A stretch of 29,971 nt of DNA, taken from positions 1 to 29,971 of the forward strand of contig JAJXWJ010000040.1 of assembly GCA_021781655.1 (NCBI GenBank), written 5' to 3'. The position numbers and the translations under genes were made by a program. The DNA comes from Bacillota bacterium (GTDB taxonomy: Bacteria; Bacillota; Clostridia; Clostridiales; Clostridiaceae). The notes beneath the pieces are model-generated. The model made no database searches and was not told the DNA's origin. It saw only the letters and a list, made by a program, of their open reading frames with translations. This document shows, in pieces, positions 1-29,487 of the stretch. The stretch's first letter is position 1; each line of letters starts with the position of its first letter.

Positions 1-1
1 C

Positions 2-52
2 AAAGGATGGATTAATTCCCTATATTAGTAATTAATCCATCCTTTATTTTTT
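2..52 (+). terminator. Rho-independent terminator hairpin (aaaggatggattaat...attaatccatccttt) followed by a T-tract; terminates a + strand gene upstream of the window
   Basis: A perfect 15-bp inverted repeat at 2-16 and 31-45 is followed by tttatttttt. Confidence 0.55.
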
Positions 53-121
53 ACCACTTCATAGTGTATTTATGAAAGTTTAATCGCTTACAATAATTGG
101 TATTATTAGCTTGATGGCTAT

Positions 122-424
122 GGGGCACAGCCCAAACCCCTATAAGAGTGTAAAATAAAATTAAGAGACTGCCACCATCTGATTAGCGTGCTTAATTATG
201 GTTCAAGAGGAAACATGGGCACAGCCCAAACCCCTATAAGAGTGTAGGATAAAATTAAGAGACTGCCACCATCTGATTAGCGTGTTTAATTATAGTTCAA
301 GAGGAAACATGGGCACAGCCCAAACCCCTATAAGAGTGTAAAATAAAATTAAGAGACTGCCACCATCTGATTAGCATGCTTAATTATAGTTCAAGAGGAA
401 ACATGGGCACAGCCCAAACCCCTA
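122..424. repeat. Tandem direct repeat with a ~94-bp unit and 3.2 near-identical copies (units begin at about 122, 217, 311 and 405)
   Basis: The unit gggcacagcccaaacccctataagagtgtaaaataaaattaagagactgccaccatctgattagcgtgcttaattatggttcaagaggaaacat repeats head-to-tail with 2-3 SNPs per copy. There are no spacers, so it is not CRISPR. Confidence 0.9.
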
Positions 425-5341: not shown

Positions 5342-5360
5342 TGAGGAAGAATAAAATAAA

Positions 5361-5460
5361 GATGTGACGCAAGTTGCCTCTATAAAAATCCTAAGAAAGT
5401 GCAACGCATTGAGTTTTAATTGACAAATGTCAATTAAAACTCCCTTTGTTTCACTTTTAA
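5361..5460. repeat. Copy A of a MITE-like inverted-repeat element family (collapsed short form with a perfect ttaattgacaaatgtcaattaa palindrome)
   Basis: Bases 5361-5413 are the reverse complement of 16168-16220. The ends gtgcaacgcatt...gtttcac are shared with copies B and C. Confidence 0.8.
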
Positions 5461-5501
5461 TCTTTTTATAGCTTAACAATATGCGTCGAATCTTCTATTT
5501 A

Positions 5502-9759: not shown

Positions 9760-9784
9760 CCATATTGTATTAATAAAAAACTAT

Positions 9785-9830
9785 AGCACAACCATTTGCA
9801 AAAGTATATACTTTTGCAAATGGTTGTGCT
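9785..9830. repeat. Perfect 46-bp palindrome (agcacaaccatttgcaaaagtat|atacttttgcaaatggttgtgct). It could be a terminator or attenuator after manA, or an operator.
   Basis: It is a perfect inverted repeat with no loop and only a weak U-tract after it. Confidence 0.6.
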
Positions 9831-9868
9831 ATTATGTTGCTAATAAATAAGAGTAGAGGAGTATGATT

Positions 9869-15893: not shown

Positions 15894-15932
15894 AAACATA
15901 ATGCGAACTAAGTTGAAACTATAAAATGTGTA

Positions 15933-16220
15933 AAAGCAAATCGCAGGTCGTTTTAATTGACAGTTGACAGTTGACAATGGACAATGATGGTTGATTTTCC
16001 TATGCTAAGCTACGGAAAATCTGTAATTTATTTAAATTGGCTAAAGCCAATGGAAACTGATGGTTTTGCTATGCAAAACCTAAAAATAATAATTTGTAGT
16101 TTTTCTGACTGAAAGGAAGAAAAACATCCTTCATTGTCAACTGTCAATTGTCCATTGTCAATTAAAACTCAATGCGTTGCACTTTCTTAGGATTTTTAAA
16201 GAGGCAACTTGCGTCGCATC
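15933..16220. repeat. Copy B (full-length, ~290 bp) of the MITE-like element. It has ~40-bp terminal inverted repeats carrying TTGACA arrays and three internal hairpins.
   Basis: The left end ttaattgacagttgacagttgacaatggacaatgatgg is the inverse of the right end ccttcattgtcaactgtcaattgtccattgtcaattaa. The right flank is the reverse complement of copy A's left part. Confidence 0.85.
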
Positions 16221-16233
16221 TTTATTAAAATTC

Positions 16234-17174: not shown

Positions 17175-18437
17175 GTGGGTGTATACAAATTTGCATTAAG
17201 GATGATGAATATATTTGCCAGTGAATGTATTTTTTATTTTATCTCGATAATAATATCCATAGCTTTAATTTTTAATTGTCTAAATGTTGTTACAATGAGC
17301 AATTTTATAGGTATGAATGAAACTCAAAATCGAATATTAACTGGAATTCCTTTCTTTTTAGCGTTGATAATTTGCTTGTTTACCTTTTATGCTAATTCTT
17401 ATTTTGTAATAAATAAAACTAAGGAAATGGCTATAGAAGCACTTTGTGGTGTTTCAGAGAGAAAGCTATCTAATTACTTACTGCTTCAAAACTTAATTAT
17501 TGAACTTTCAGGTTTTGTAATTGGTTTAGTCATCGGTATTATGATTCAGCCTATAACGTTAACCTTAGTATACAAAAGTCTTAATAGTAATGGGAATATA
17601 TGGTCGTTGAACATGACTAGCATAGGTGGCACCGTTGCAATTTTAATTATTCAATTATTGTATGTGACTGCAGGTGACTATGCGTTTATTTCTACAAAAG
17701 AGATTAAAGACTTAATGGTATTAGAAAAAGAAATTTATGCTCCAGATAATAGAACAATACGGTTTCCAGGCTTTATGTATGTAATAATTTATTTTATGCC
17801 TGTTGTAATATTATTTAAAGTTTCAGGAAAGACCACAGATTTATTATCCGTTTATGTAATATGTTCACTCATAAGTATAAATGGAATATTGCAGTTTTAT
17901 ATTCCTAAAAAAATAGCTAATATAAAAGAAAAAAGATTTTCTGATAATAAAATAATGATGATATCTTTAAGCAACCTACAGTATTCCTTCAAAAAACTAA
18001 ATTTTCTTATGCTTATGATATCTTCAATAATAGCTTTTGTGCTTGGTCTTTTAGGTTCATTTGCAGACAATCAATATATTAAAATTATGAGTGTAATTGC
18101 TTATTTTAGTATAGTAATTTTAATATCTATAAGCTTAATATATAAGCTTCGTATTGAAGTTCAAAAAAGAAAAGATTCCTTTAGAAATCTCTTACTCATT
18201 GGATATACAAAAGCAGAGGTTAAAAAGATTATTTTAGTAGAAGTATTAATATTTTATGTAATCGCTATAACAATTCCATTAGGCCATATTTTGTTTTATA
18301 TATACACATTTTTATTAGGTGGTATAATTTCTATTTCAGTAGCAATAGCACTTCCTGCTACATATGCTTTAATGTTTACTGCAACAGGGTTAATAGCATA
18401 TCAATCTTATAAAAATATGATAATAAAAGATAAATAA
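17175..18437 (+). CDS. ABC transporter permease, FtsX-like family (copy 1)
   Basis: It is a multi-TM protein with a C-terminal FtsX-like segment (LLIGYTKAEVKKIIL...). It is a paralog of 20844-22094 and uses a GTG start (MGVYKF). Confidence 0.7.
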   Translation: MGVYKFALRMMNIFASECIFYFISIIISIALIFNCLNVVTMSNFIGMNETQNRILTGIPFFLALIICLFTFYANSYFVINKTKEMAIEALCGVSERKLSNYLLLQNLIIELSGFVIGLVIGIMIQPITLTLVYKSLNSNGNIWSLNMTSIGGTVAILIIQLLYVTAGDYAFISTKEIKDLMVLEKEIYAPDNRTIRFPGFMYVIIYFMPVVILFKVSGKTTDLLSVYVICSLISINGILQFYIPKKIANIKEKRFSDNKIMMISLSNLQYSFKKLNFLMLMISSIIAFVLGLLGSFADNQYIKIMSVIAYFSIVILISISLIYKLRIEVQKRKDSFRNLLLIGYTKAEVKKIILVEVLIFYVIAITIPLGHILFYIYTFLLGGIISISVAIALPATYALMFTATGLIAYQSYKNMIIKDK

Positions 18438-18455
18438 TTATAAAGGGGTGCAAAA

Positions 18456-19859
18456 ATGGAAGTATATAAATTAACATTAAAAACAATTAGTATATTTATC
18501 ATAAAATGCATTTTAAATTTTGCATTAATAATAGTATCAACAGCTTTAATTTTCAATTGTTTAAATGTTATTATAATAAAGAATATAATAGGTAGTAATG
18601 GAATTGGAAATCAGACGCATGTAGTAATTCTTTTTTTATTATTGTTAATAATATGTTTAATTTCTTTTTATTGTAATGCTTATTTTTTAGTGAGGAAGAC
18701 AGATAAGCTAGTAAAATCTAAACTTATTAATGCTTCGGAAAAGAAACTATTTGATTACTTATTGATTAAAAATTTTATTATTGAAATTACAGGTTTTGCA
18801 ATTGGTTTTGTTATTGGAATTAAAATGCAGCCAATAATTTTAAATTTTGTGTACAGAATTATTGGTACTAATGGAGATATAAGTAGTTTGAATAATGTTA
18901 GTGTAAGTACATCAATTGCAGTTCTAATTATTCAATTGTATTGCACGATTGTTTATGAGAAAGGGATTATATTAATAAATAAGGCTAAACCTTTAATAAA
19001 AGACAATGTAGTTTATACAAAAAATGTAACAAAAATATATAAACAAATAATTAGAACAAAAAAGTTTGATCCACTTTCTGCTTTTGCTGGCTTGGGAATA
19101 AGTGTTGGAAATAAGGAAATAAAAATTAAAGATAAGAAAAAGAGTGTGCAATTTAAAGCTTTAGATAAGGTTAGCCTCTCTATAAAGAGTGGAGAATTTG
19201 TTTGTATAATGGGACCATCAGGCTCTGGAAAATCAACCTTTTTAAATATATTATCTACAATAGATATGCCTAATGTTGGTATTGTTAAAGTTAATGGTGA
19301 AGATGTTCCTGTTATGCCTCAGAAAAAATTAAGCAGATTTAGATATGAAAATATAGGCTATGTATTTCAAGATTTTAATTTGTTAGAACAATTAACAATA
19401 AGAGAAAATATAAGTGTTCCACTTAAATTAGCGGATATACCTATTAACATAATAGATGAAAAGGTAGTTGAACTAGCAGAGAAGTTAAATATAACTAATA
19501 TTTTAGATAAATTTCCTTATGATTGCTCAGGTGGAGAGAAGCAAAGAGCAGCCTGTGCAAGAGCACTTGTTACAGAACCAAGAATTATAGTAGCAGATGA
19601 ACCAACAGGAAATTTGGATACAAAAAATTCTCATGAGATTTTAAGTATTTTAAGAGAAAGAAATGAAAAGGATGGAATATCTATACTTATGGTTACCCAT
19701 GACGCGCTGCTTGCAAGTTATTCAAAAAAACTCATATTTCTAAGGGATGGTAAAATTGATGAGGTTGTAGAAAGAGGACAATTATCGCAAAAAGAATTTT
19801 ATTATAAAATTGTAGATATCACTTCAAAAGAATCGCAAAGTCTTTTTGATGCTATGTAA
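18456..19859 (+). CDS. Fusion protein with an N-terminal 4-TM fragment homologous to the FtsX-like permease N-terminus joined to a MacB/FtsE-type ABC ATPase domain
   Basis: The N-terminal ~180 aa align to the permeases' first ~180 aa. The remainder has Walker A GPSGSGKST, signature CSGGEKQRAA and Walker B IVADEPTGNLD. The two parts are in one continuous frame. Confidence 0.7.
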   Translation: MEVYKLTLKTISIFIIKCILNFALIIVSTALIFNCLNVIIIKNIIGSNGIGNQTHVVILFLLLLIICLISFYCNAYFLVRKTDKLVKSKLINASEKKLFDYLLIKNFIIEITGFAIGFVIGIKMQPIILNFVYRIIGTNGDISSLNNVSVSTSIAVLIIQLYCTIVYEKGIILINKAKPLIKDNVVYTKNVTKIYKQIIRTKKFDPLSAFAGLGISVGNKEIKIKDKKKSVQFKALDKVSLSIKSGEFVCIMGPSGSGKSTFLNILSTIDMPNVGIVKVNGEDVPVMPQKKLSRFRYENIGYVFQDFNLLEQLTIRENISVPLKLADIPINIIDEKVVELAEKLNITNILDKFPYDCSGGEKQRAACARALVTEPRIIVADEPTGNLDTKNSHEILSILRERNEKDGISILMVTHDALLASYSKKLIFLRDGKIDEVVERGQLSQKEFYYKIVDITSKESQSLFDAM

Positions 19860-19869
19860 TGCAAAACAG

Positions 19870-19900
19870 AAGGCTTAGGTAAACAATTTACCTAAGCCTT
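19870..19900 (+). terminator. Strong hairpin (aaggcttaggtaaa-caa-tttacctaagcctt) separating the two transporter units
   Basis: It has a 14-bp perfect stem but only a weak T-tract. Confidence 0.5.
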
Positions 19901-19909
19901 TAACATATG

Positions 19910-19938
19910 TTGCATTAGAAAAATTATAGATTTATAAT
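19910..19938 (+). promoter_or_regulatory. Near-consensus sigma-A promoter TTGCAT-17-TATAAT for the second transporter unit
   Basis: It reads ttgcat tagaaaaattatagatt tataat, about 40 nt upstream of the TTG start and RBS. Confidence 0.6.
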
Positions 19939-19977
19939 AATGTTATTGTTTACATATACTTTAAAGGGGATGTCAAG

Positions 19978-20829
19978 TTGAAAAAAATAATAGATGCAAA
20001 AAATATTATAAAAACTTACGATATAGCTGTCAGAGGAAGTAAATTCAAAAATAGCATTAAATATTCTTCTGCAGATAATGGTATGCTTAATATTGAAGTT
20101 GTTAAAGGAGAAACAAGTAAATTTAAAGCTTTAGACAAAGTAAGTTTGTCTATTATGGAGGGGGAATTTACATGTGTAATGGGTCCATCAGGATCTGGTA
20201 AGTCCACATTAATAAGTATTTTATCCACAATAGACAGTCCAACCATCGGTAAAATTAAAGTTAATGGAGAAAATGTTATAGAGATGTCAGAAAGAAAATT
20301 AAGCCGATTCAGATATGAAAATATTGGTTATATTTTTCAGGAGTTTAACCTTTTGGATAATATAACCATTAGAGATAATATAGCACTTCCTCTTTTGCTT
20401 AAAAATGTAAATAAAAAAGAAATATATAAAAGAGTAGAAGCTTTAGCGGAAAAGCTTGATATAGTAGGTACTTTGGATAAGCTTCCCTCAGAGTGCTCTG
20501 GAGGACAAAAGCAAAGGGCAGCCTCAGCTAGGGCACTTATTTCTGAGCCTAAAATAATTATTGCAGATGAGCCAACAGGAAATTTAGATTCAAAAAATTC
20601 CCATGAACTTTTGAAAATATTAAAGGAACGAAATGAAAAACAAGGTACATCTGTATTAATGGTTACTCATGATGCAATGATAGCTAGCTACTCAAAAAAA
20701 CTTGTATTCATACGAGATGGAAAAATAGAAACAGAGCTTATAAGAGGAGATTTATCACAAAAGGAATTTTTTTATAAAATAGTCGATATCACTTCAAAAG
20801 AATCTCAAAATTTATTCAATGAAATATAG
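19978..20829 (+). CDS. ABC transporter ATP-binding protein (MacB/LolD/FtsE-like, copy 2)
   Basis: It has Walker A GPSGSGKST, signature CSGGQKQRAA and Walker B IIADEPTGNLD. It uses a TTG start with an AAGGGGA RBS. Confidence 0.85.
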   Translation: MKKIIDAKNIIKTYDIAVRGSKFKNSIKYSSADNGMLNIEVVKGETSKFKALDKVSLSIMEGEFTCVMGPSGSGKSTLISILSTIDSPTIGKIKVNGENVIEMSERKLSRFRYENIGYIFQEFNLLDNITIRDNIALPLLLKNVNKKEIYKRVEALAEKLDIVGTLDKLPSECSGGQKQRAASARALISEPKIIIADEPTGNLDSKNSHELLKILKERNEKQGTSVLMVTHDAMIASYSKKLVFIRDGKIETELIRGDLSQKEFFYKIVDITSKESQNLFNEI

Positions 20830-20843
20830 ATAAGGAGTTAACA

Positions 20844-22094
20844 ATGGGGGTATTAAAATTTTCTATAAAAATGTTAAATTTAGTTGCTAAAGAAAGTATT
20901 TTTTATTTTGTATCAATAATTATTTCAATGGCAATAATATATAATAGTTTAAATATTGTTGTAAGCGATAACATCTTGGGAGCAAGAGGTATAGACAATC
21001 AAGTAATAACTAATATACCATTTTTTTTAGCTCTACTGATATGTGTTTTCACATTTTATGCTAATTCATATTTTGTAATAAATAAAACTAAAGAATTAGC
21101 TATAGCAGCACTTTGTGGTATTTCAAGCGGCGAATTGACTGGCTATTTTTTGGTGCAAAATTTTGTTATTGAAATACTTGGAGGTTTTTTTGGAATAATA
21201 CTAGGAATTCTAATTCAACCTATATATATAGAAATTTTGTACAAATATTTAAGCATAAATGGCAGCGTCTGGCTTATAAATAAGGAGACTATATTTGGAG
21301 CTTTAGGTATTTTGCTTTTACAGCTGTTATATATTACAGCTGGAGATTTTGCTTATATTTCTTCCAAAGAAATCAAGTTTCTAATGACTTTAGAAAAACA
21401 GGTTTATACGCCAGATACAAGAAAAATAAAAGTTAATAACAAGCTATATTTAATTGTATACTGCATTCCTTTTGTGACGGTATTTTTAGGCGTTAATATT
21501 ATTCCATTAGATATGGCATGTTCTATTTACAGCATATATGGGATAGTGAGGTATTATATTCCTAATAAGCTTCTAGATATTAAAGAAAAAAAGTATAGTG
21601 GAAATAAAATATATTTAGTTTCATTAAGTAATTTATACTATTCTTTAAAAAGGCTAACTTTTCTGATTTTAATATTATCATCAGTTATACCTGTAGTTTT
21701 AGGACTGTTAATGATAAATAAAGGAAGCTCAGTTATAAAAATTATGAGCATATTCACATATTGCAGTATTATAGTTTTAATTGCTGTTTGCATGGTGTAT
21801 AAGCTGTTGATAGAAGCTAACAATAGGATGTCTTCATTTAAAAATCTTCTGCTTATAGGATATACAAAAGCTGAGGTTAAAAAGGTAATATTTTCGGAAA
21901 TTATTTTGTTTTATTGTATAGCAGCTATTATGCCGCTCCTTCATGTGCTAGTGTATGTATTTATTTTTAAAGCTGCTAATTACATTACAATATCAATTGG
22001 ATTGGGTTTAATATTATCCTTTGTTTTAATGTTTGGAATAACAGAGTTAATTTCATATAGAGCATATAAAAATTGTGTATTTTCCACCATATAA
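20844..22094 (+). CDS. ABC transporter permease, FtsX-like family (copy 2)
   Basis: It is a paralog of 17175-18437 (MGVLKF... and conserved FYANSYFVINKTKE). An AAGGAG RBS precedes it. Confidence 0.7.
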   Translation: MGVLKFSIKMLNLVAKESIFYFVSIIISMAIIYNSLNIVVSDNILGARGIDNQVITNIPFFLALLICVFTFYANSYFVINKTKELAIAALCGISSGELTGYFLVQNFVIEILGGFFGIILGILIQPIYIEILYKYLSINGSVWLINKETIFGALGILLLQLLYITAGDFAYISSKEIKFLMTLEKQVYTPDTRKIKVNNKLYLIVYCIPFVTVFLGVNIIPLDMACSIYSIYGIVRYYIPNKLLDIKEKKYSGNKIYLVSLSNLYYSLKRLTFLILILSSVIPVVLGLLMINKGSSVIKIMSIFTYCSIIVLIAVCMVYKLLIEANNRMSSFKNLLLIGYTKAEVKKVIFSEIILFYCIAAIMPLLHVLVYVFIFKAANYITISIGLGLILSFVLMFGITELISYRAYKNCVFSTI

Positions 22095-29235: not shown

Positions 29236-29418
29236 AAAAAAATTACGCACTAACTCTTAAGCTTAAATTGTTAAAAAGTGAAACGCATTATATATTAATT
29301 GACATTTGACAATGGACAATTGACAATGATTGTGGATTTTTCTACGCTACTCTACGAAAAATCTTTAAACAATTTAATTGCCTAAAGGCAATTAAAACTT
29401 CCTACGTTTCACTTTATA
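29236..29418. repeat. Copy C (~180 bp) of the MITE-like element, inserted between modules 3a and 3b
   Basis: Its ends gtgaaacgcatt...cgtttcac match the family. It carries a TTGACA array and hairpins gatttttc-N13-gaaaaatc and ttaattgcc-taaa-ggcaattaa homologous to copy B. Confidence 0.85.
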
Positions 29419-29487
29419 ACTATTTTTAAAAGTAACTTAGTTCGTAATATTATTTTATTGTACCGAAAAAATATTGAGGTGTTTATT

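Follow-up and report, generated by a model that had tools for sequence, protein, structure and literature searches.

A 94-bp intergenic tandem repeat in an uncultured Clostridium lineage, probably a minisatellite, interrupted by an element that is most likely of the IS231 type

In the tandem sRNA genes LhrC1-4 of Listeria, every unit comes with a promoter and a strong terminator of its own, and conservation extends to the structure. The insertion sequences (IS) IS1397 and ISKpn1 target repeated palindromes, namely, the enterobacterial REP/BIME elements. In mycobacteria, the MIRUs form a dispersed family, with about 40 loci in one genome. These MIRUs are bacterial intergenic minisatellites, or VNTR loci (PMC3635867). 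Members of the IS231 subgroup of the IS4 family have ends of the form CAT-------AA--TAA--- and direct repeats of 10 to 12 bp (PMC2266710 Table 1, De Palmenaer et al. 2008), and Table 1 of PMC2577343, citing Hallet et al. 1994, gives an 11-bp target site duplication for IS231A at the target GGGNNNNNCCC. Elements of this subgroup are 1450 to 5400 bp long and have a single DDE transposase with a YREK motif. The cmr switch of C. difficile is an invertible segment upstream of cmrRST (PMC6837544, PMC8844915).

We examined a tandem repeat that shares features with each of these systems. As in the MIRUs, its unit is tens of base pairs long, lies head to tail without spacers, is non-coding and intergenic, and begins with the stop codon of the gene upstream; close relatives differ in copy number, which is consistent with slippage or unequal crossing-over. 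Unlike the MIRUs, the unit was found at one locus and in one uncultured Clostridium lineage only. The units resemble the LhrC genes in being about 100 nt long, tandem, and nearly identical, and a C/U-rich stretch on the minus strand (UUUCCUCUU) could pair with Shine-Dalgarno sequences, but the array lacks promoters and covariation, its hairpin is weak, and the C/U stretch varies between lineages. A repeated intergenic hairpin became the landing site of an IS, as happens with IS1397 and ISKpn1; here, however, the ordinary sequence preference of IS231 would account for the choice, and the hairpins belong to one tandem array instead of a genome-wide REP family. We favor, at a probability of about 0.6, the reading that the array is a lineage-specific, non-coding minisatellite of the VNTR type, generated by slippage or unequal recombination, most likely without a dedicated function, and later cut by an IS231-type insertion. 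It would then be one more lineage-specific intergenic minisatellite in uncultured Clostridium, with a small biological weight.

Layout and copy number of the array

The window (the whole stretch of DNA analyzed, 29,971 bp) contains a single strong tandem array, located by Tandem Repeats Finder at 123 to 424 (period, 94; copies, 3.2; score, 569; matches, 96%; indels, 0%), and a repeat search of the window recovered three in-register copies with a mutual identity of 96 to 98%. The 94-bp tandem repeat is beyond chance. An initial annotation, made from the sequence alone, had described 3.2 copies of a 94-bp repeat here, which our analysis bears out, but the 2 to 3 SNPs that it assigned to each unit are in fact 1, 3, and 1 differences from the consensus. 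It was also right that this is no CRISPR array, as the units abut without unique spacers between them. This head-to-tail arrangement without spacers, with a unit of at least 10 bp, is that of a VNTR. Each unit starts with TAG, continues with a two-tier G+C-rich hairpin (core, GGGCTGTGCCC), and otherwise consists of 30%-GC DNA. The hairpin core at 123 to 133 is repeated at 217 to 227, 311 to 321, and 405 to 415, and the window has no further copy of it. The TAG of the minus-strand DUF4342 gene (424 to 422) forms the opening 3 nt of unit 1 on that strand; thus, the array does meet the stop codon of this gene, as had been annotated, but it does so with a complete unit, and the partial unit (123 to 142) is the distal, IS-cut end.

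The same array, with the same SNPs between units base for base, was present in two public contigs (L001 and L002) from k141 assemblies of different samples. Because the array is identical in two independent assemblies, and because a k-mer of 141 is longer than the 94-bp period, it is real DNA and not an assembly artefact. The features of the locus are listed in Table 1.

Table 1. Coordinates of the array, the inserted element, and the adjoining gene in the window
Feature	Position	Strand	Remarks
Outer 122 nt of inserted element	1..122	-	public contigs run 14 nt further, then end
16-bp-stem hairpin with T-runs on both sides, within element end	2..45		predicted -30.2 kcal/mol including tail
17-bp terminal inverted repeat CATAGCCATCAAGCTAA	106..122	-	perfect inverted match at L015 121-137
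Left copy of 11-bp target site duplication, GGGCACAGCCC (GGGCTGTGCCC on minus strand)	123..133		fits GGG(N)5CCC
Unit 4, first 20 nt, TAGGGGTTTGGGCTGTGCCC	123..142	-	truncated by insertion
Repeat unit 3	143..236	-	Tandem Repeats Finder and unit alignment
Repeat unit 2	237..330	-	3 differences from consensus
Repeat unit 1	331..424	-	on the gene's strand, TAGGGGTTTGGGCTGTGCCCATGTTTCCTCTTGAAC...CTCTTA
Mini-ORF MGTAQTPIRV, after AAGAGGAAAC	215..247	+	again at 309-341
Variant mini-ORF MGTAQTPSRFPC, 12 aa	403-441	+	extends into 3' end of DUF4342 gene
DUF4342 gene, 139 aa	422..841	-	Pfam PF14242, E=1.8e-13; ORF list

The exact DUF4342 protein was present on 7 public contigs. Among 5.8 billion proteins, it had just two close relatives (94% and 77% identity), and the further matches were at most 55% identical and came from Clostridium species in all cases. 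Judged by sequence, the host is an uncultured Clostridium lineage. All of the material consists of short metagenomic contigs. In the window lineage (the window together with the L015-type contigs), 3.5 units follow the stop codon, of which 3.2 are visible in the window. The sister lineage (L005 and L006; 93.8% nucleotide identity over 1.7 kb) has 1.5 units (94 plus 47 nt), although its locus may be either that of a co-occurring strain or a paralog within the same genome. The relative with 77% protein identity (L007 and L008) has no unit, and an unrelated long hairpin lies in its place. Copy number thus differs between related genomes, as in a VNTR locus. Inside the window lineage, no copy-number polymorphism was seen, and the number was equal in every array-spanning contig.

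The first units of the window and the sister lineage were 87 to 91% identical, so that similarity within the window's array exceeds that between lineages, again as in a VNTR. Among the options raised in the initial annotation, slippage amplification is the one favored by these data, both by this difference in identity and by the 3.5, 1.5, and 0 units found in ever more distant relatives. Identity between the window and the sister lineage was 85% (119/140) at the third codon positions of the DUF4342 gene and 96.6% in the intergenic region upstream. Because the divergence of the unit is similar to that of third codon positions and greater than that of the upstream intergenic region, most of the unit drifts at an approximately neutral rate, which argues against strong constraint on most of it. 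While other parts vary, no copy in either lineage (5 full and 3 half units) differed in the hairpin region, which covers the first 25 nt, or in the 18-mer GCTAATCAGATGGTGGCA, and this invariance could reflect constraint.

The terminal half-unit of the window, rebuilt across the inserted element, matched that of the sister lineage at 46/47 positions, and the two have CTAAATTT in common. The three full internal units of the window share a derived CTATAATT signature. The near identity of the terminal half-units indicates that the common ancestor had at least 1.5 units, and the shared derived CTATAATT, together with the mutual identity of 96 to 98%, indicates that the internal units were expanded or homogenized in the window lineage after the split. 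In both lineages the array stops at the same phase, 47 nt into the unit, against the left inverted repeat of an invertible segment (described below), which hints at a structural relationship between the two.

A 21-mer from the unit core was absent from 185,579 species-representative genomes, bar chance matches, and scans of JGI metagenomes with a 26-mer and a 19-mer from the core likewise gave chance matches only. These chance matches of 19 to 21 nt lay on unrelated G+C-richer contigs (40 to 54% GC where measured) and did not extend past the motif. The whole array had no match in plasmid and phage collections (blastn), a second copy of the unit was not found elsewhere in the 30-kb window, and the orthologous spacers of L007/L008 and L021/L022, where an origin of the unit was sought, showed no similarity to it. 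The initial annotation had proposed a BLASTN search for the unit; in the collections covered by these scans and comparisons, the unit was located at one locus only, that of the window and the sister lineage. A dispersed family would occupy several unlinked loci, whereas we found a single one in the window and the collections searched; we therefore rejected a dispersed element, given that the core scans of genomes and metagenomes produced only chance, non-extending matches.

Insertion at the far end of the array and the separated operon

We retrieved four further contigs (L015, L016, L018, and L019) via the response-regulator gene that lies downstream of the DUF4342 gene in relatives. On the gene's strand, the array in the window ends with ...TAGGGGTTT, then GGGCTGTGCCC, and then CATAGCCATCAAGCTAA..., while upstream of the response regulator the L015-type contigs read ...CTAACTTAGCTTGATGGCTATG, GGGCTGTGCCC, ATGTTTCCTCTTGAACTAAATTTAAGC, and TTTCATCAAAATC... 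in this order. The 11-mer GGGCTGTGCCC is present in the same orientation at both junctions (window, 133 to 123; L015, 138 to 148), and the outer flanks of the two junctions combine into exactly the 47-nt half-unit, of which the 27 nt that follow unit 4's first 20 nt lie across the element on contig L015 (149 to 175). The 11-mer direct repeat, the 17-bp inverted repeat, and the rejoined half-unit together form the signature of a transposable element with terminal inverted repeats (TIR) and an 11-bp target site duplication (TSD). Site-specific inversion at the palindromic hairpin GGGC(NNN)GCCC was considered and rejected, as the loop, TGT, is not flipped between the two junctions. Direct repeats at the junctions with inverted repeats inside them point to a transposon insertion and not to an inversion. 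The "0.2 copy" at 123 to 142 is thus no natural end of the array, since an IS inserted there, and the intact array had 3.5 units. The initial annotation had no means of recognizing positions 1 to 122, left of the array, as the IS end that interrupts it.

The window and the L015-type contigs would represent the two sides of one IS copy; this link is based on the fit of TIR and TSD and on a shared sample (L001 and L019 are both in ERZ27236897). Two contigs end 136 nt inside the element (L001 and L002), and three begin 137 nt inside its other end (L015, L016, and L019). When the CCC or GGG shared with the target is counted, these stops correspond to k-1 for k141 assemblies, as expected of a multicopy repeat. 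That the window begins inside a multicopy IS231-like element explains why every public contig ends there.

Both element ends, CATAGCCATCAAGCTAA, match the IS231-subgroup consensus at 8/8 bases: as in IS231A and its subgroup, they start with CAT and have AA at 11 to 12 and TAA at 15 to 17. The duplicated GGGCTGTGCCC is 11 bp long, which is within the 10 to 12 bp of the subgroup and equal to the 11 bp of IS231A, and it fits GGG(N)5CCC exactly. The 11-bp direct repeat at a GGG(N)5CCC target in AT-rich surroundings is likewise shared with IS231A and its subgroup (PMC2577343, PMC2266710). In the window, GGG(N)5CCC occurs at 4 sites, against an expectation of 0.31 from base composition (30.1% GC); all four are repeat hairpins, and there are none outside the array. 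The element, known here from 136 to 137 nt per end, is most likely of the IS231 type within the IS4 family, based on its ends, the length of the duplication, and the target. It differs from IS231A in that its host is a Clostridium and not a member of the Bacillus cereus group, in that only 136 to 137 nt of each end are available here, and in that its ends lack extended similarity to plasmid-borne elements (against plasmids, the left end had no match and the right end had one insignificant 75% match, to a Priestia plasmid). The only demonstrable consequence of the array is that it supplies the sole IS231 target motifs in 30 kb of 30%-GC DNA, and with the assignment above, the insertion would be a clear natural case, in a host outside the Bacillus cereus group, of how IS231-type elements choose their targets.

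The strong hairpin inside the element end (Table 1) is likely a bidirectional intrinsic terminator, at which the DUF4342 transcripts of this genome would probably end; its minus-strand T-run is visible in L001. Separately, the first 190 nt of contig L017 (ERZ27236866) form a long palindrome centered on the hairpin of the IS right end, in which the half-unit and the switch are mirrored and the loop is flipped. This palindrome is either real, as an inverted duplication, or a fold-back artefact of assembly or library preparation.

In the sister lineage, the array adjoins a 100-nt segment between inverted repeats of 12 to 13 bp (TTTCATCAAAATC and GATTTTGATGAA), and the segment is also present on L015 (176 to 300). 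It lies in opposite orientations in L005 (1719 to 1819) and L006 (665 to 789), with 100% identity, and these two contigs encode an identical DUF4342 protein. Inverted repeats at both ends and the occurrence of both orientations in natural populations give the segment the makeup of an inverton. The segment contains a GGGAGG ribosome-binding site (RBS) and a palindromic TATAAT box, and the right inverted repeat includes the ATG of an OmpR-type response regulator, with a histidine kinase gene next. The arrangement suggests a probable phase-variable switch for this two-component system. No recombinase gene was found in the 4 kb downstream, and the recombinase may act in trans. The 77% relative shares this operon but has neither the inverted repeats nor the 94-nt unit. 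On one of its contigs (L007, 1253 to 4310), two short ORFs take the place of each of three genes (response regulator, histidine kinase, and ROK), probably through indel errors of a long-read assembly and not because these are real pseudogenes.

The segment shares with the cmr switch of C. difficile its small size, its flanking inverted repeats, its clostridial host, and its place directly upstream of an operon for signal transduction that includes an OmpR-family regulator. In contrast to cmr, the inverted repeats have a different sequence, the start codon of the regulator lies in the right repeat and the RBS lies on the segment itself, and no c-di-GMP riboswitch was detected at the related loci. 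The insertion uncouples the DUF4342 gene from the two-component operon, which in the sister lineage sits behind the invertible promoter/RBS segment. The invertible switch probably deserves experimental attention more than the repeat does.

Under the minisatellite reading, the array would have arisen in the spacer between the DUF4342 gene and the operon that originally followed it (the OmpR-type response regulator and the histidine kinase), with that operon behind its small invertible promoter/RBS segment. Unequal recombination or replication slippage between units would have changed the copy number: from a common ancestor with at least 1.5 units, the sister lineage would have remained at 1.5, and the internal units of the window lineage would have increased to a total of 3.5. 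The IS231-type element would then have entered the hairpin of the last half-unit, duplicating the 11-bp GGG(N)5CCC target and leaving the window with 3.2 units followed by the IS end (1 to 122). The array would be transcribed, probably being carried as a 3' untranslated region (UTR) of ∼440 nt on the DUF4342 mRNA that ends at the hairpin in the IS end.

Function of the repeat unit

At gathering thresholds, Rfam gave 0 hits for the entire window; at a permissive E<=10, positions 1 to 1100 yielded noise only (E>0.5), and nothing was found on the related loci. Single units folded no better than dinucleotide shuffles on either strand (z, -0.3 to +1.4). The consensus fold predicted for the five full units from the two lineages (RNAalifold) opens, 5', with a two-tier hairpin and has a smaller one besides; compensatory changes were seen in 0/17 pairs. 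The minus-strand fold of 1 to 440 had a z of -2.3, which is largely due to the IS-end hairpin (-30.2 kcal/mol alone) and to pairing between repeat copies. A sigma-70-like promoter was not found in the array on either strand. The units do not have a promoter and terminator of their own; the one signal that recurs in them is, on the gene's strand, the 5-bp hairpin TGGGCTGTGCCCA and the interrupted T-tail behind it. Two of the roles suggested in the initial annotation thus find no support, namely, an sRNA cassette (no Rfam family, folding at the level of shuffles, no promoter) and a structured 3'-UTR array (no compensatory pairs, folds no better than shuffles). Both of the checks it had suggested for the unit, RNA folding and Rfam, came out against a structured RNA.

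This hairpin raises the alternative that the units are weak terminator or insulator hairpins in the DUF4342 3' UTR that limit read-through into the downstream, originally phase-variable two-component operon, with copy number tuning the leakage. On the gene's strand, each unit has TGGGCTGTGCCCA followed by TGTTTCCTCT, and a crude terminator screen counted 3 such sites where 0.4 were expected. The extended two-tier stem is kept in both lineages (-12 to -13.5 kcal/mol), and a terminator of some kind would be expected here, given that a long hairpin and its T-rich tail occupy the corresponding place in the 77% relative. However, the extended stem consumes the T-rich tail, with CUUGAAC remaining after it, and although the same screen registered the second half-unit of the sister lineage, it missed the first-unit tail, TGTTCCCTCA. 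Together with the absence of compensatory changes and a folding energy no better than that of shuffles, this makes the terminator role unlikely.

Alternatively, the units may be binding sites for the OmpR-type regulator or for the recombinase of the switch or an accessory protein, forming a copy-number-tunable region of a phase-variable promoter. At the sister locus, which is not interrupted, the array does adjoin the invertible segment at its left inverted repeat; array and segment are both missing from the 77% relative; and no full unit deviates from the 18-mer GCTAATCAGATGGTGGCA. Yet BLAST found no motif of the unit in the invertible segment or its inverted repeats, and in the window lineage the IS parts the array from the promoter while the array has stayed unchanged in several samples. 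A period of 94 bp is also far longer than that of any array of response-regulator or recombinase sites known to us. We regard binding sites of this kind as quite unlikely.

A broader version would make the unit a module of the switch, in which the flipped promoter/RBS fires into the array to produce antisense RNA to the DUF4342 3' end and to have one mini-cistron translated per unit, or in which the unit binds the regulator or the recombinase, with repeat number setting the strength of a second output of the phase-variable two-component system. We give such a module very little credence.

The plus strand might by itself be functional, with the flipped segment driving, in each unit, a mini-cistron (an SD-like AAGAGGAAAC, an ATG, and ∼10 codons) or an antisense RNA. 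Every unit indeed has an RBS-like sequence followed by ATG, and in the flipped state seen in L005, the GGGAGG RBS and the palindromic TATAAT box of the segment point toward the array. The initial annotation had the decapeptide MGTAQTPIRV encoded three times; the exact peptide follows two of the start codons (ATG at 215 and 309), but the ATG at 403 yields MGTAQTPSRFPC. A further ATG, at 120, belongs to the terminal repeat of the IS; it is out of frame with the others and lacks an RBS. In the sister lineage the products are MGTAQTSIRVQDKIKRVPPSD, MGTAQTPSKD, and MGTAQTPSMFPCL, so that the peptides of the two lineages vary in length (10, 12, 13, and 21 aa) and differ at the C terminus; conservation of the mini-peptide was sought in the sister lineage and not found. 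The part shared by both lineages is only that which overlaps the conserved hairpin DNA, of which the common N terminus MGTAQT is merely a reflection. The SD-to-ATG spacing is just 4 nt, and the SD is degraded to GAAGGAAC in one sister copy. On the plus strand of the window no promoter-like site was found upstream, and in the window lineage the predicted bidirectional terminator in the IS end separates outside promoters from the array. Apart from the mini-ORF, sequence inspection found stop codons in all frames of the units on both strands. We judged the mini-ORF to be no conserved coding feature; the leader-peptide cassette once proposed is unsupported because the mini-peptide is not conserved in the sister lineage, and a functional plus strand appears highly improbable.

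Finally, the idea that assemblers collapsed or expanded reads of a single-copy sequence, to which the breaks of L003 and L004 within the first unit lend some color as signs that assemblers struggle here, can be practically dismissed, because independent assemblies of different samples agree on 3.2 units and their SNPs at a k-mer above the period and the 1.5-unit version was assembled independently in the sister lineage.

Other features of the window

Divergent from the DUF4342 gene, the plus strand encodes a Cys- and Pro-rich protein of 139 aa with no Pfam match (1019 to 1438). This divergent pair is kept in all close relatives (L001 to L008), and its conservation suggests a functional pairing of the two proteins.

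A perfect 50-bp palindrome (9783 to 9832; 25-nt arms, 100% complementary, no loop) lies between a mannose-6-phosphate isomerase-like gene and a gene for a SASA-family esterase. It could be an operator or a cruciform-prone site. At 17175 to 22094, a set of FtsX-permease and ABC-ATPase genes is present as a tandem duplicate, with DNA repeats that are 65 to 82% identical at offsets of 970 to 3669 bp, which points to an old segmental duplication of a transporter module.

A palindromic MITE-like element, which had no match in Rfam, is present in three copies in spacers after gene ends (5383 to 5470, 15916 to 16226, and 29262 to 29430). Its inverted arms are roughly 45 nt long, with the consensus TAAAAAT..TAAAAAGTGAAACGCATTGAGTTTTAATTGACA, and the interiors are variable; in two of the three, the heptamer AATTGAC is repeated in a run, 4.4 times in each case. 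The arms at 5355 to 5435 and 16146 to 16226 are 94% complementary.
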